Sequence record: NZ_CP120538.1
DNA from: a plasmid
Direction: 5' to 3' (one strand)
Length of the DNA: 9,630 bases
Shown here: positions 2,963 through 9,630 of the stretch, piece by piece
Layout of the letters: the number at the start of each line of letters is the position of its first letter
How positions within the stretch are numbered: position 1 is the stretch's first letter
The notes under the pieces: model-generated
The model's input: the letters and a program-made list of their open reading frames with translations, nothing else
Told to the model about the DNA's origin: nothing
Database searches by the model: none
Made by a program: the position numbers and the translations under genes

Positions 2963-3484
2963 ATGTCTAAGTTTAAATGTTCAGTATTAGCTTTAACGGT
3001 ATTAGCTTTGTCTGGTTGTGGTGAGAAAAGCGACATAGAGAACGCGATAAATAAAAACATAGAAAATAAGGAGTATTGTTATAGCCTACAAGATAATGAT
3101 ATTTCATTTCCTATCACAATAGGACGAGATAACTTTTCTCAAGATTTTTCACCTATTTTAAAAGGATTAGCTAATCAAGGGTTAGTAACTTTACATAATC
3201 AAGGTTATAGGGATTATGTTATAAGCTTAACCGAAAAGGGGGCTAAAACAGATTTTTGGGATAAAAAACGTGGTGTGTGTATGGGGAAACGGGTTGTTGA
3301 CGATATAAAAGAGTGGACTGAAGGTGAGCAAAATACAATCATGGTCACATATACAGAGAAATTAGTTGATGTTCCTCGTTGGGTAGATAAAAAGTCTTTC
3401 TCTGATATTGAAGGAATGGATAGCCCTGCAGAGAAACGTGCTGTTTTAAAAAAAACAAGTAATGGTTGGAAAGTTTGGAATTAA
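2963..3484 (+). CDS. Lipoprotein of unknown function (173 aa)
   Basis: Signal peptide plus lipobox LSGC (MSKFKCSVLALTVLALSGCGEK). Follows the Zn-ribbon gene after a 19-nt gap, so probably an operon. No known domain recognised. Confidence 0.7.
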   Translation: MSKFKCSVLALTVLALSGCGEKSDIENAINKNIENKEYCYSLQDNDISFPITIGRDNFSQDFSPILKGLANQGLVTLHNQGYRDYVISLTEKGAKTDFWDKKRGVCMGKRVVDDIKEWTEGEQNTIMVTYTEKLVDVPRWVDKKSFSDIEGMDSPAEKRAVLKKTSNGWKVWN

Positions 3485-3655: not shown

Positions 3656-4186
3656 ATGAATTATAATTTACCAAGCCCAGAGGAAATGATTAAACAATTA
3701 GGTGATTTAATTAATAAAAGGAATGAAAAAGAGAGGTTGGGAGATTTTTTCAATAATGATTATTTTTCTGAGTTCAGAAAATGTATAAACAATGAAGTTT
3801 CTGAAATAAAAAACATGGAGGTTAAAAGGTCAATAAAAGGTGCATATTTAAGCGCTTGTATAAAAAGATACAAAAGGAACATAGTAAAAGACTACATACT
3901 TAAAATAGCGCTTATTGAGGGGTTAGACCTGACTCAGAGGATAGCAGATCTATTTTTTATTGAATGCCTAGGAAGAAGTGTGGGAGAGTTCTTTCTCAAT
4001 GAGCATTTTTCTGGGTTGCAATATAAAGAAAATAAATTAACTAAAATAAAAAGAACGAGTGAAAATATTGTATTAAATCCAGTAAAAAAAGAAGAAGTAA
4101 AAGGAATTATAGCAAAATATAAAAATCAAATTATCGACTCAGTAGAAAAAATAAAATGTTATTTTTACGAAGCTAAGCTTTATTGA
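3656..4186 (+). CDS. Hypothetical cytoplasmic protein (176 aa), no recognisable family
   Basis: ORF with a GAGG RBS (AAAGAGGTTTATAATG). Lys-rich with no TM segment or signal peptide. Bracketed by the TAATCGATTA operator family. Confidence 0.6.
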   Translation: MNYNLPSPEEMIKQLGDLINKRNEKERLGDFFNNDYFSEFRKCINNEVSEIKNMEVKRSIKGAYLSACIKRYKRNIVKDYILKIALIEGLDLTQRIADLFFIECLGRSVGEFFLNEHFSGLQYKENKLTKIKRTSENIVLNPVKKEEVKGIIAKYKNQIIDSVEKIKCYFYEAKLY

Positions 4187-6366: not shown

Positions 6367-6891
6367 TTATAACTTTTTACTTCTAGGTTTTGACAAGTCT
6401 GGAGGCGAACCAAAATATAAATCACCATTTTCTATTACGTATTTTATTGGTATTTTTGGGTTATTGATATCTTTTCCTCCATCTGAATGCCATTTTTTTT
6501 CCCATTTATCATAAAAAAATTCTAGATTTTCAGGCTGTAAAATATATATGCTTTTTATTTCTATGTTTTCGTAAATTGCAAAAACCCAAGGAACTTTTCT
6601 GTATTTTTCTATTATTTTTGGATTCATATGGTGGTGTGTTGAAAAGTTTTTCACTAGATCAATATTTGCTGATTTTAATTCATATTCAATACCACTTGAG
6701 TCAATTGCATCATTTCCCTCTCTTCCGGGGAGTACTTTTATGTCTAGTAATAATAATACTTGTAATAATTTTCCTCCATTGTCTTGAAATATATCATATA
6801 TTCCATGCTCATTAGCTAGATTTTGGTATTCTTGGATAGCAGGCCATAAATGTAGTAGTTTTTCGTAGTCTTTATTTGGTTTCAGAGTCAT
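6367..6891 (-). CDS. Type II restriction endonuclease, R.PvuII-like (174 aa)
   Basis: Close similarity, from recall, to R.PvuII across its length: LWPx[19 protein letters not shown], [22 protein letters not shown] (catalytic D/E/K region), [44 protein letters not shown]. Adjacent to the C gene and a divergent beta-class MTase, exactly as in the PvuII operon. Confidence 0.9.
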
Positions 6892-7114
6892 TAAATTCTT
6901 CCTTTAACAAATCTGATGCTGATATTTTCATCGCTTTTGCAATTTTTTCAATATTATCAATAGATATATTTCTTTCTGACCGCTCTACAGCTCCAATGTA
7001 TGTGCGGTGTAAGCCAACAAGGTCTGCGAAAGATTCTTGTGATATATTGTTTTTATTTCTATGATTTTTAATGTTTTTAGCGAGTATTTCTCGTAGCATC
7101 ATCTTCATTTTCAT
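6872..7114 (-). CDS. Controller (C) protein of the R-M system, XRE-family HTH (80 aa)
   Basis: [28 protein letters not shown]. Lies upstream of, and overlaps by 20 nt, the endonuclease gene. C-box-like repeats 35-60 bp upstream of its start. Confidence 0.85.
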
Positions 7115-7133: not shown

Positions 7134-8159
7134 ATGTACTATTTGATGACTATATATCTACAGACTATGAGTAGCAGATTGATGATTGATGATTTAAAGC
7201 GTGCATATTATACGAATAATGGAGCGGTATATGAGGGGGACTCTCTGAAGTTATTAGATTCTATCGCTGATAATAGTATAAATCTAATTATTACAAGTCC
7301 GCCTTTTGCTTTGCAGCGTAAAAAAGAATATGGGAATCATGATCAAGATGACTATATAGATTGGTTTATCCCTTTTGCTGAAAAAGCAAAGAGAAAATTA
7401 ACTGATGATGGTAGTTTTGTTATAGATTTTGGTGGTGCTTATAAAAAAGGTATGCCAGTAAGAAGTTTATATAATTTTAAAATTCTAATTGAATTAGTTG
7501 AAACGGTTGGCTTTCATTTGGCTGAGGATTTTTATTGGTTTAATCCATCAAAACTACCAAGTCCTATTGAATGGGTAAATAAAAGAAAACTAAGGGTAAA
7601 GGATTCAGTAAATACTATTTGGTGGTTAAGTAAAACTCCATGGCCTAAATCAGATGTAACAAAAGTATTGAGTCCATATAGTGAAAAAATGAAAAAGCTA
7701 ATTGATAATCCTGAAAAATATTATACACCTAAGATGAGACCGTCAGGACATGATATTGGAAGTAGCTTTGGTAAAGACAATGGTGGTGCTATCCCTCCGA
7801 ATTTACTTCAAATCCCAAATTCAGAATCAAATAGTGGATATTTATCAGGTTGTAAAAAAGTAGGAGTTAAATCGCACCCAGCAAGATTCCCTGCTAAGTT
7901 GCCTGAGTTTTTTATCAAAATGCTTACAGACGAAAATGATATTGTTCTTGATATTTTTGGTGGTTCAAATACTACAGGAATGGTTGCAGAAAATCTAAAT
8001 AGGAAATGGATTACTTTTGAGAAAGAGATTAATTATATAGCAACATCAGCTTTCAGATTCTTTGATAAAGGTGAAAATGAGGAATCTCTCATAAAAGTTC
8101 ATGATGATATCCTTTCTGGAAATGAAGTTAAGTTAAATGAGTTTTTAGTAAAAAAATAA
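7134..8159 (+). CDS. DNA methyltransferase, beta-class (motif IV before motif I), M.PvuII-like N4-cytosine MTase (341 aa). Alternative internal Met starts are possible (codons 5, 12, 17).
   Basis: Motif IV SPPF (IITSPPFAL) near the N-terminus. Motif I FGGSNTTG (DIFGGSNTTGMVA) near the C-terminus. The size and the divergent C/R arrangement match PvuII. Confidence 0.9.
   Translation: MYYLMTIYLQTMSSRLMIDDLKRAYYTNNGAVYEGDSLKLLDSIADNSINLIITSPPFALQRKKEYGNHDQDDYIDWFIPFAEKAKRKLTDDGSFVIDFGGAYKKGMPVRSLYNFKILIELVETVGFHLAEDFYWFNPSKLPSPIEWVNKRKLRVKDSVNTIWWLSKTPWPKSDVTKVLSPYSEKMKKLIDNPEKYYTPKMRPSGHDIGSSFGKDNGGAIPPNLLQIPNSESNSGYLSGCKKVGVKSHPARFPAKLPEFFIKMLTDENDIVLDIFGGSNTTGMVAENLNRKWITFEKEINYIATSAFRFFDKGENEESLIKVHDDILSGNEVKLNEFLVKK
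7148..7173. promoter_or_regulatory. C-box operator pair, GACT-ATA-TATC TACA GACT-ATG-AGTA, upstream of the C gene and embedded in the 5' end of the MTase ORF
   Basis: Tandem GACT-N3-AGTC-like half-site pairs with a 4-bp spacer, matching the known C.PvuII-type C-box layout. Sequence seen directly. Confidence 0.6.
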
Positions 8160-8202: not shown

Positions 8203-8466
8203 TTAAATTTGGTTTTTATCTTGCTGCTTGTAGCGCTTTGCTAAGGATTTTACCGCATCAATTGTAGCGTTCATGCTATCAGCAACGTCTTTCCAGGCTA
8301 AGCCTTTCTGTCTAAGTTCAAACGCTTGTTTTCTACGGGCTGCAGCTTCTTGTTCGTAATCTTCACGATCCTGTGAATAGTATTTTTTTACTGTTGCGAT
8401 TGATACGCCATATTCAAATGCTAAATCTTTTGCTTTTGTGTTTCTTTTTTGATTTTTAATTTTCAT
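8203..8466 (-). CDS. Small HTH DNA-binding protein (87 aa), translationally coupled to the upstream rep gene
   Basis: HTH segment LAFEYGVSIATVKKY. Start ATG overlaps the rep stop (ATGA). Basic C-terminus. Confidence 0.7.
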   Translation of the reverse strand: MKIKNQKRNTKAKDLAFEYGVSIATVKKYYSQDREDYEQEAAARRKQAFELRQKGLAWKDVADSMNATIDAVKSLAKRYKQQDKNQI

Positions 8467-9317
8467 AGTAATTCATTCCTTAGTGCAGCGAGTAGATTAG
8501 CAGCTTTTTTCTTCGTCTTAGTCTTCCCTAGGTTTCTTTTTCCTCGCTCACTTTGTATTTTTGAAAATTGTTCGGAGCTAAAATTCTTCCATACCCACTT
8601 TCCAACGCTTCTTGCTGTTGCTTTAATTTCGTTAAAAGGTAATAAATTAGTCGGATTTGAATAAGTATTGAGATTAATTGCTTGTTTTTCGATTTCATTC
8701 ATCCAGTGATGAAAATCGCTGATTTCTTTAAATTTTAAAACATTTTTATAAGCATAATGTCTTAAGTCGTCAAAGAGGTTGACGTTGCGACCTAATCCAA
8801 AGCTTTCATACTTAGTGGTCTCTTTATTTGAGTTTTCTAGTGTAATGAAATCAGCTAAATAATCGAGTTCATATAAATCCGCATTGCTCCAATGAGGTCT
8901 CCAGTGTGGATTGAATGGGTTTTTAGTGATTAAACCTGCAAATCCCTGATCTGCTTTTAGATTTTTTCCCATTTCTAATTCAACTGCAGCCGCATAACGT
9001 AATGGTTCTAACTTTGCATTTTGAGTCTTACATACTCCTCTTTTTAGTATATATCCCATATGACAACGCCCGTTTTCTGGGTTTTGAGTTGTAAAATGAG
9101 GAACTGGGAGGTGTGCTTCTTCAAAATCATAAAAGCTGTTATCTCTATCTATATCAAACAATAAGCATGTTTGAATTGAAGGATTATTTATCTGTAAGTA
9201 AAGCATATCTAACGCTTTATTTTTAGGTCTTATTTTTAGCCCGTAATCTAGGTTATCACTACAATATGGCTTATAGGGAAGTTGACTAATTATTGTTTCT
9301 TGGTTATCGTTATACAT
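8463..9317 (-). CDS. rep: Plasmid replication initiator protein (284 aa); tentatively ColE2-Rep/Replicase (primase-type) family
   Basis: Sits as the first gene behind a repeat-rich leader. Acidic hhhhDhD motif (LLFDIDRDN) as in primase-type Reps. Basic C-terminal tail. The family call rests on recalled features only. Confidence 0.6.
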   Translation of the reverse strand: MYNDNQETIISQLPYKPYCSDNLDYGLKIRPKNKALDMLYLQINNPSIQTCLLFDIDRDNSFYDFEEAHLPVPHFTTQNPENGRCHMGYILKRGVCKTQNAKLEPLRYAAAVELEMGKNLKADQGFAGLITKNPFNPHWRPHWSNADLYELDYLADFITLENSNKETTKYESFGLGRNVNLFDDLRHYAYKNVLKFKEISDFHHWMNEIEKQAINLNTYSNPTNLLPFNEIKATARSVGKWVWKNFSSEQFSKIQSERGKRNLGKTKTKKKAANLLAALRNELL

Positions 9318-9392
9318 GAATAAACAATTCCTTGTAGTTGAAACCCTGCACTTAAGTTTGCCGACCAGAGTGTGGGGTTTTGTTTTTTATAA

Positions 9393-9420
9393 GTTATAAC
9401 TCCTTTTTTCTTTGTGTCAA
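9393..9420 (-). promoter_or_regulatory. Strong candidate rep promoter on the minus strand: TTGACA (complement of 9415-9420), 16-nt spacer, TATAAC (complement of 9393-9398)
   Basis: Read directly from the reverse strand. The -35 lies inside copy 1 of the 38-bp direct repeat. Confidence 0.55.
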
Positions 9421-9546
9421 GTGTCTAAATTAACCATATCAGATAACAGCCAATTTTTGGTGGGTTTTCATATTCAAAAGGAAAACTGTTTATTTAGATT
9501 ATTGAACGTGTCAAGTGTCTAAATTAACCATATCAGATAACAGCCG
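9414..9546. repeat. Two perfect 38-bp direct repeats GTGTCAAGTGTCTAAATTAACCATATCAGATAACAGCC (9414-9451 and 9509-9546; 95-bp period). Each is followed by a TGG(T/G)GGGTTTT G-tract/T-run element, with a third such element at 9370-9389 in the rep leader.
   Basis: Seen directly. Too few and too long for classic iterons or a CRISPR array. Probably duplicated rep control or origin sequence. Confidence 0.75.
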
Positions 9547-9630
9547 GATCTCTTGGGGGGTTTTAGATCATAGGAAAGTAATGCTATTTATCAAAACGGA
9601 CTGATTTCTCAGCCCTTTTCTTCATATTGT

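Follow-up and report, generated by a model that had tools for sequence, protein, structure and literature searches.

Organization of the region upstream of rep

We analyzed a 9,630-nt stretch of plasmid DNA (sequence record NZ_CP120538.1), referred to below as the window, with emphasis on a duplicated 38-nt element located upstream of the replication initiator gene rep. The Rep protein is a ColE2-family initiator of the primase type. Its residues 177-273 match the DNA-binding domain of ColE2-P9 Rep (E = 1.2e-7), which was crystallized together with its origin (PDB 3vw4) and is the only solved relative of Rep. No NCBIfam model matched the protein. The rep gene is followed by a small open reading frame (ORF) encoding an 87-amino acid (aa) protein with two helix-turn-helix (HTH) units, and the rest of the window encodes ParA, a resolvase and a PvuII-type restriction-modification system.

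The repeated element, GTGTCAAGTGTCTAAATTAACCATATCAGATAACAGCC, occurs as two direct copies that are identical at 38 of 38 positions, in agreement with a first-pass annotation made from the sequence alone. The probability that such a match arises by chance in 9.6 kb is negligible (about 5e7 position pairs divided by 4^38). The copies start 94 nt apart, whereas the earlier annotation had placed them at 95 bp. The coordinates of all features of the replication region are given in Table 1.

Table 1. Features of the rep locus and its upstream region in the window
Feature	Position	Strand	Remarks
Small HTH ORF, 87 aa, sigma-70 region 4-like	8203..8466	-	Overlaps rep stop codon (ATGA)
rep, ColE2-family primase-type initiator, 284 aa	8463..9317	-	Pfam PF03090 (E = 7e-35) and PriCT_1
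Antisense promoter-like site	9282..9310	+	TTGACT 9282-9287, 17-nt spacer, TATCGT 9305-9310; inside rep codons 3-12
Predicted RNA I-like antisense transcript, ~73 nt	9317..9389	+	14-bp stem, 9340-9353 with 9368-9381; loop UUGCCG 9358-9363; U-run to 9389
rep mRNA leader, ~69 nt	9318..9386	-	Shine-Dalgarno sequence (SD) AAGGAA 9333-9328; predicted target of antisense RNA
rep promoter	9393..9420	-	-35 TTGACA 9420-9415 inside copy 1, 16-nt spacer, -10 TATAAC 9398-9393
Proximal ColE2-type ori / predicted Rep-binding element (copy 1)	9414..9451	+	Core ATCAGATAACAGC 9438-9450; left arm TGTCAAGT 9415-9422
Candidate AGA primer site, copy 1	9441..9443	+	By analogy with ColE2-P9
Diverged rest of duplication unit 1	9452..9507	+	Contains post-ori G-tract/T-run TGGTGGGTTTT 9458-9468
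Distal ColE2-type ori / predicted Rep-binding element (copy 2)	9508..9545	+	Core 9532-9544; candidate AGA primer site 9535-9537
Diverged rest of duplication unit 2	9546..9601	+	Contains post-ori G-tract/T-run TGGGGGGTTTT 9554-9564

Each repeat ends in a ColE2-type origin core

The ColE2-type origin of replication (ori) has been described as a 32-bp element located downstream of rep, in which CAGATAA is present twice (as L and, ~15 nt further on, as R) along with specificity sites and the place where Rep makes the AGA primer. Replication from such an ori requires Rep and DNA polymerase I, is unidirectional and starts from a ppApGpA primer; for ColE2 it needs neither DnaA nor DnaG. This 32-bp ori replicates with Rep supplied in trans, with a copy number that tracks the Rep dose, and when cloned in trans it acts as a Rep-titrating incompatibility determinant.

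The right end of each 38-mer is ATATCAGATAACAGC, a sequence that contains both the AGA primer site and the R repeat CAGATAA. Both copies carry ATCAGATAACAGC, exactly the core of the ColE2-P9 ori, and even with up to two mismatches allowed the window has no further match to it. The 44-nt ColE2-P9 ori sequence used for this comparison was validated against plasmid records: it is 100% identical in 45 E. coli/Shigella colicin plasmids of ~6.7 kb, where it spans the stop codon of the rep gene encoding the 3vw4 protein. Another ColE2-like plasmid of E. coli has ACCTATATCAGATAACAGCGCC immediately after the rep stop codon. When 16 origins were aligned (ColE2-P9 type, pAsa1, pEI1, two Acinetobacter plasmids, pJD1 and the clade of the window), ATCAGATA(A/T)CAGC was the sole conserved block, and only the bracketed position varied. 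A text search of the literature with the core sequence returned only irrelevant matches to fungal primers.

The 38-mers thus combine the core, the R repeat and the AGA primer site with an adjacent cognate Rep. Since each of them ends in the invariant ColE2-type core, we read them as two origin or Rep-binding sites. It is likely that they represent two copies of a ColE2-type origin and that the region 9282-9601 is the origin and replication-control module of a class C theta replicon. This identity was overlooked in the first-pass annotation. Its suggestion that the duplication could titrate a regulator is plausible only if the titrated factor is Rep or the small HTH protein.

Both copies are retained in related plasmids

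The closest relatives of the window are the Providencia plasmids pPRVEN3-3, pBML2531 and two others, and Citrobacter pMobC, at 92-96% nucleotide identity; no mention of pMobC was found in the literature searched. A pattern scan of the genome collection yielded only three loci. Copy 1 is 100% identical in pPRVEN3-3 and 97% in pMobC, and copy 2 is 97% and 100% identical, respectively. The leader (9318-9413) reaches 100% and 98%, as compared to 93% and 88% for the third-codon positions of rep, 88% and 69% for the spacer between the copies, and 91% and 75% for the tail after copy 2. The leader and both copies are more constrained than synonymous sites, which excludes recent slippage or a neutral duplicate. 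The slippage proposed earlier is also at odds with the 97-100% conservation of both copies in five related plasmids, across a spacer that has diverged to 69-88%.

The duplicated unit is larger than the 38-mer. It consists of 94 nt, present in tandem at 9414-9507 and 9508-9601, and the tails of the two units can still be aligned, with 36 of 60 columns identical (a score reached in 4 of 2000 shuffles). The 94-nt units are an old tandem duplication, in which the tails have decayed to this level while the 38-mers kept 38/38. Tandem Repeats Finder reported no repeat in the region due to the divergence of the units outside the 38-mer. The two copies differ in 2-3 nt at the positions that match the right end of the 32-bp ColE2 ori (CAA vs CGG). 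An inverted partial copy of the left arm of the 38-mer (14/18) is found on the plus strand at 9488-9505, 5 nt before the distal copy, and gives the distal 38-mer a palindromic flank; it is weakly conserved in relatives.

A composite element of the same type occurs in ~4-kb plasmids of Klebsiella, Serratia, Enterobacter and Citrobacter, of which the Rep proteins are 60-65% identical to that of the window. It is composed of (T)TTGTCAAGT, a variable block of 10-11 nt and CCATATCAGATAACAGCC, is found on the strand opposite to rep, 120-220 nt upstream of the gene, and is the sole core match in these records. The first-pass annotation suggested that related plasmids be compared for variation in repeat number, and such variation was indeed found: most relatives have one copy, the replicons L008, L009 and L025 have two (84-85 nt apart), and the closest relatives of the window have three, the third being located beyond a DUF5397-VapD module that the window lacks. 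With spacings of 84-85 nt and of 94-96 nt (window clade), or roughly 8 and 9 helical turns, both ori sites would be on the same face of the DNA.

The third ori-like copy (L001 3485-3522, L002 3498-3527, L018 ~7134-7171) is more degenerate, with a ATATCAGC variant and a variable block that is altered or shorter, and is placed upstream of the DUF5397-vapD operon. Compared to pPRVEN3-3 and pMobC, the window lacks ~630 nt (L001 2933-3561) that comprise vapD, the DUF5397 gene and this third copy, and positions 1-28 of the window resemble the 3′ end of vapD (22/28). The window looks like a complete circular plasmid from which the vapD-DUF5397 module was deleted. If it is a fragment, the third copy could lie outside it.

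The rep promoter is fused to the proximal copy

As the first-pass annotation recognized, copy 1 supplies the -35 element of the rep promoter. The arrangement TTGACA-16-TATAAC of the window is kept as TTGACA-16-TAnAAC in every relative examined, with TATAAC, TAAAAC, TACAAC or TAGAAC as the -10 element. From this promoter, rep transcription is predicted to start near 9386. The same annotation correctly described the distal copy as lacking a matching -10 element: its TTGACA is followed at this spacing only by TAAACA, and the distal copies in relatives do not have the -10 element either.

Alignment to the 32-bp ColE2 ori places the region contacted by Rep at ~9422-9453. This region directly abuts the -35 element at 9415-9420, for which reason occupancy of the proximal origin should hinder RNA polymerase.

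The more distant Klebsiella replicon L023 contains the motif GTGTCAAGT(A/G)GTCA twice on the minus strand (1225-1275), 25 nt apart. One of the two TGTCAAGT motifs forms the rep -35 element and has no priming core, whereas the other belongs to a diverged ori-like element, of which it makes up the left arm and ATATCAGGTAATAATGG the core. The separate occurrence of the motif at the promoter and at the ori in L023 suggests that TGTCAAGT is a separable protein-binding module.

A predicted antisense RNA covers the rep leader

A promoter-like sequence on the plus strand lies within the first codons of rep, and its pattern, TTGAYT-17-TATnnT, is kept at this place in all relatives; ColE2-P9 has TTGAAG-16-TACGAT at the equivalent position. 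Transcription from the site in the window would start at ~9317. The resulting RNA (9317-9392) is predicted to fold with -21 kcal/mol (z = -3.1) into a 14-bp stem followed by GUUUUUU. Four G·U pairs of the stem have no counterpart in the rep-sense strand of the same segment, the fold of which is weaker (-14 kcal/mol, z = -1.5). The predicted ~73-nt RNA is complementary to all of the 69-nt leader, with SD (9328-9333) and start codon included.

Ten distinct relatives, which differ in stem sequence, have a hairpin with U-run on the antisense strand (z from -3.6 to -5.3); U makes up 7-10 of the 12 bases that follow their stems. The stem shows covariation in a MAFFT alignment, with 7 of 9 consensus pairs changed on both sides. 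The covariation score was 0.45 as compared to 0.21 in shuffled alignments, none of 500 reaching the observed value, and 0.06-0.29 in slid controls; 84% of the stem cells were paired, vs 72% in shuffles. In ColE2-P9, where RNA I is experimentally established, the same terminal hairpin is present with a UUGGCG loop and a U-run.

The pairing of AAACCC with GGGGTTT and the resemblance of the leader element to a rho-independent terminator, both pointed out in the first-pass annotation, are thus part of the 14-bp stem and the U-run that follows. Its proposal of a countertranscript of the ColE2 type also gains strong comparative support in silico from the promoter-like site, the hairpin and the covariation kept in relatives, and from the same layout in ColE2-P9. 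A simple terminator scan did not list the hairpin since its loop of 14 nt exceeds the 8-nt limit of the scan.

The strand that carries the loop motif varies. UUGGCG is on the antisense strand in ColE2-P9, L008 and pJD1, and on the rep mRNA strand in L005, L009-L015, pAsa1, L022, L023 and L024. L008 and L009 have similar stem arms but loops that are reverse complements of each other, which would fit an inversion mediated by the hairpin arms. If so, the flip of the loop among close relatives may be a one-step incompatibility switch, as it would swap antisense/target specificity in a single event.

The HTH protein and the Rep C-terminus

Ten of 11 homologs of the 87-aa protein match Sigma70_r4_2 (best E = 8e-13), while the window protein itself scores 25.5 bits against a cut-off of 25.7. 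An AlphaFold model built from the single sequence was poor (pLDDT 66, pTM 0.31). Among the replicons sampled, an HTH ORF after rep and an upstream ori with a TGTYAAGT arm always occur together, and the ORF is absent in every sampled replicon with a downstream ori. Since sigma region 4 recognizes TTGACA, the HTH protein is a candidate reader of the arm and might bind the ACTTGACAC arm of both ori and promoter.

Rep diverges faster in its C-terminal part than in its N-terminal primase part (82% vs 97% identity between L010 and L014, for example). The variable block of the ori changes alongside the Rep C-terminus when L008-L014 are compared to the window, which is consistent with co-evolving specificity determinants.

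G-tract/T-run elements

The first-pass annotation noted a G-tract/T-run element after each copy and in the leader. All three are present on the plus strand, although the leader element, TGTGGGGTTTT at 9371-9381, deviates from the proposed pattern at one position. The pattern has 4 matches in the window vs 0.29 expected, and none of 200 shuffles reached 4. The leader element is the 3′ arm of the predicted antisense terminator. The tails after the copies were rejected as real terminators in this plasmid, with folding energies of -6.5 and -4.6 kcal/mol (z = -1.5 and +0.6). They correspond, in degenerate form, to the small GC hairpin with T-run that generally follows ColE2-type oris, of which GCGCCTTTTTGGCGCTTTTTT in L004 and GCCCCAAAGGGGTGGTTTTTT in L017 are examples.

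Proposed mechanism and alternative explanations

In the proposed mechanism, each 38-mer would be bound by the C-terminal DNA-binding domain of Rep. If the analogy with ColE2-P9 holds, Rep would make a short AGA primer, at either 9441-9443 or 9535-9537, from which the leading strand would be extended to higher coordinates, away from rep. The proximal 38-mer could double as the rep operator, with bound protein repressing rep transcription; such repression is to be expected because the left arm TGTCAAGT is the complement of the -35 element of the rep promoter. The distal 38-mer may serve as a second origin, as a Rep sink that lowers the amount of free Rep per plasmid, or both, the sink role being comparable to the incompatibility function of the ColE2 ori. 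The plus-strand ~73-nt antisense RNA (~9317-9389) would control translation of Rep, as in ColE2.

Several observations weigh against this interpretation. The ColE2 L repeat is absent: the equivalent position reads TAAATTA instead of CAGATAA (4/7), and the left half of the 38-mer consists of TGTCAAGT and a variable block in its place. Recognition of this half by Rep is an extrapolation from ColE2, and the TGTCAAGT arm might be bound by the small HTH protein rather than by Rep. Position and orientation are also non-canonical: the two cores are found on the strand opposite to rep, at 121 and 215 nt upstream of its start. The -10 element TATAAC of rep is atypical in ending with C and was not listed by a promoter scan. 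Searching 9282-9400 against Rfam, without a check that it holds a model of ColE2 RNA I, gave no match even at E ≤ 1, and the antisense loop of the window is UUGCCG whereas the family motif is UUGGCG. GC skew was uninformative for the location of the origin since it is dominated by gene orientation.

Some other candidate features were rejected. A possible third origin on the minus strand at 9135-9147, TAGAGATAACAGC, matches the core at 10 of 13 positions and lies inside the D-R-D-N-S codons of rep, and its nucleotide sequence is not conserved in pMobC. This match on the rep-sense strand, in the primase motif region, is probably a coding coincidence. Against an origin of transfer (oriT), the same core is the experimentally defined ColE2-P9 ori, and the element was found in plasmids typed as non-mobilizable. 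A partition centromere is contradicted by the presence of the element in 4-kb relatives without an annotated ParA gene. The region is not a CRISPR array, as already stated in the first-pass annotation, because there are only two copies while three or more regularly spaced repeats with unique spacers are required; no search for cas genes was made.

A refinement of the two-origin interpretation, in which one copy is the live origin and the other is a dedicated decoy for copy control, is possible but somewhat unlikely. In pMobC the proximal copy has changed from AACAGC to ATCAGC with a canonical distal copy, the copies differ at the right end of the 32-bp ori as described above, and the incompatibility exerted by the ColE2 ori in trans would fit a decoy. 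However, the same A-to-T variant is found in the sole ori of the Acinetobacter plasmid L022 and is probably tolerated, and both copies are equally conserved.

It is improbable that both 38-mers are regulatory operators or decoys, for Rep or for a sigma-region-4-like HTH protein, with the working origin elsewhere. Such a role would explain the overlap of the TGTCAAGT arm with the -35 element, the arm without priming core at the L023 promoter, and the co-occurrence of HTH ORF and arm in every replicon sampled. It leaves the perfect conservation of the priming core, needless for a pure operator, without an explanation, and it requires an origin for which no other core match within two mismatches exists in the window. 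The only matches with three mismatches are in coding sequence and are not conserved in pMobC, and in the 4-kb single-copy relatives the upstream element is the sole core match.

Even less probable is that the repeat is a promoter element with an incidental slippage duplicate that has no function, the rep promoter and antisense region being the only functional parts. The -35 element is indeed in the proximal copy, the distal copy has no good -10 element and most relatives have one copy. The conservation of both copies in the five Providencia and Citrobacter plasmids, and of the 38-mers in the window beside their decayed unit tails, argues against a functionless duplicate. Furthermore, conservation runs 30 nt past the -35 element and equals the ColE2 ori core, and two-copy layouts also occur in other lineages (L008; L009 and L025).

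We give the least credence to iterons of a class A theta origin, with cooperative Rep binding and handcuffing: direct repeats adjoining rep at spacings near whole helical turns (84-85 and 94-96 nt) would suit them, and one review loosely terms the internal repeats of ColE2 'two iterons', but Rep is of the primase type (PF03090) rather than the winged-helix Rep_3 type, one copy suffices in most relatives, and the unit of 38 bp (vs 17-22 bp) contains the priming site; no search for DnaA boxes or an AT-rich unwinding array was made. The first-pass annotation had likewise judged the repeats atypical for iterons.

Comparison with known replicons

ColE2-P9 and ColE3-CA38 (class C theta replication, Rep primase, 32-bp ori, control by RNA I) share with the window the Rep family and its DNA-binding domain. 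The ori core ATCAGATAACAGC, the R repeat CAGATAA, the AGA site and the post-ori GC hairpin with T-run are common to ColE2-P9 and the window, as are, in the leader, an A-run, a hairpin (with loop UUGGCG in ColE2-P9 and UUGCCG in the window) and an antisense promoter-like site at the rep start. The main differences concern the arrangement. In ColE2-P9 the ori follows rep immediately on the same strand, whereas in the window it is upstream on the opposite strand, occurs twice, has TGTCAAGT and a variable block in place of the L repeat, and is fused to the rep -35 element. The window also has the extra HTH gene that is translationally coupled to rep and a shorter leader (~69 nt), of which the SD and start codon are covered by the predicted antisense RNA. 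A canonical ori, downstream on the same strand and without HTH ORF, is present in ColE2-P9, L004, pAsa1, an Acinetobacter plasmid and Edwardsiella pEI1; the canonical position was seen in L004, L006, L021, L022 and L024.

The cryptic plasmid pJD1 of Neisseria gonorrhoeae resembles the window in several respects: its core, on the strand opposite to rep, precedes the gene by ~115-130 nt and has a TGTCAA arm, an HTH ORF comes after rep, and the antisense strand of the leader contains UUGGCG where the window has UUGCCG. Like the closest relatives of the window, pJD1 carries DUF5397 and VapD. It differs in its single ori copy, a Rep that is only ~32% identical and a shorter spacer between TGTCAA arm and core. 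No published description of the pJD1 ori was found in the literature searched.

The ~4-kb plasmids of Klebsiella, Enterobacter, Citrobacter and Serratia (rep_cluster_1451 and untyped; L008-L014) share the composite element, the promoter fusion, the leader hairpin and the HTH ORF with the window. They mostly have one copy and differ from the window in the variable block and the Rep C-terminal domain; the majority also have the loop motif on the mRNA strand instead of the antisense strand.

Two natural ori copies are also found in the Edwardsiella ictaluri plasmid pEI-S97-773-1 (pEI1-type, L024), at 2213-2225 and 3279-3291, so that duplication of a ColE2-type ori is not confined to the clade of the window. 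In contrast to the window, these copies are downstream of rep, on the rep strand, ~1 kb apart and equipped with a canonical L repeat (CCAGATAAC).

The pAL5000-type replicons of mycobacteria encode a PF03090-like RepA followed by a small sigma factor-like DNA-binding protein, RepB, which binds the origin; the two genes form an operon and the origin is upstream of it. The window may have a comparable layout, with its PF03090-type rep, the coupled sigma-like ORF (ATGA overlap; Sigma70_r4_2 score below the cut-off, see above) and the upstream ori. Unlike in pAL5000, Rep of the window itself retains a ColE2-type DNA-binding domain.

Other features of the window

The PvuII-type restriction endonuclease is encoded at 6367-6891 on the minus strand and an N4/N6 DNA methylase at 7134-8159 on the plus strand. 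The start of the endonuclease gene is overlapped by a small minus-strand ORF (6872-7114), placed where a controller (C) protein would be encoded. The segment 4196-4287, located after the ORF at 3656-4186, gave weak Rfam matches to the same hairpin-type model on both strands. These matches point to a long palindromic stem-loop in this intergenic region, which may be a terminator or an oriT-type inverted repeat.

Implications

The smallest known plasmid origin and an initiator that is its own primase make ColE2-type replicons a textbook example. They are used in engineering since copy number can be tuned by Rep dose. The window represents a variant layout of this known replicon type rather than a new kind of element, and since the known mechanism is unchanged the importance of the finding is moderate. 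The variant architecture is common to a substantial, apparently undescribed group of small plasmids, although some upstream origins may already be listed by Yagura et al. in 2006.

We tentatively combine these observations in a broader reading that we consider rather unlikely: the clade of the window, pJD1 and many 4-kb enterobacterial plasmids would form an 'ori-upstream' subclass of class C theta replicons, defined by fusion of ori and -35 element, an HTH protein that reads the arm, and retained extra copies. If this is true, origin occupancy would directly set transcription of the initiator, a sigma-region-4-like accessory protein would read the -35-like TGTCAAGT arm, and extra copies spaced near whole helical turns would add a layer of copy control by titration or looping on top of the antisense RNA.

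The plasmids with the variant architecture appear to form a sizeable and clinically widespread group, with small plasmids of Providencia, Citrobacter, Klebsiella and Enterobacter and probably also the gonococcal cryptic plasmid. The same priming core is wired differently in these replicons: upstream, divergent, promoter-fused, with an HTH gene added and in one to three copies. This accounts for replicon-typing schemes placing such plasmids in separate or untyped clusters. The findings offer a concrete origin annotation for many 'cryptic' plasmids and a testable model in which origin occupancy, transcription and antisense control would be coupled.

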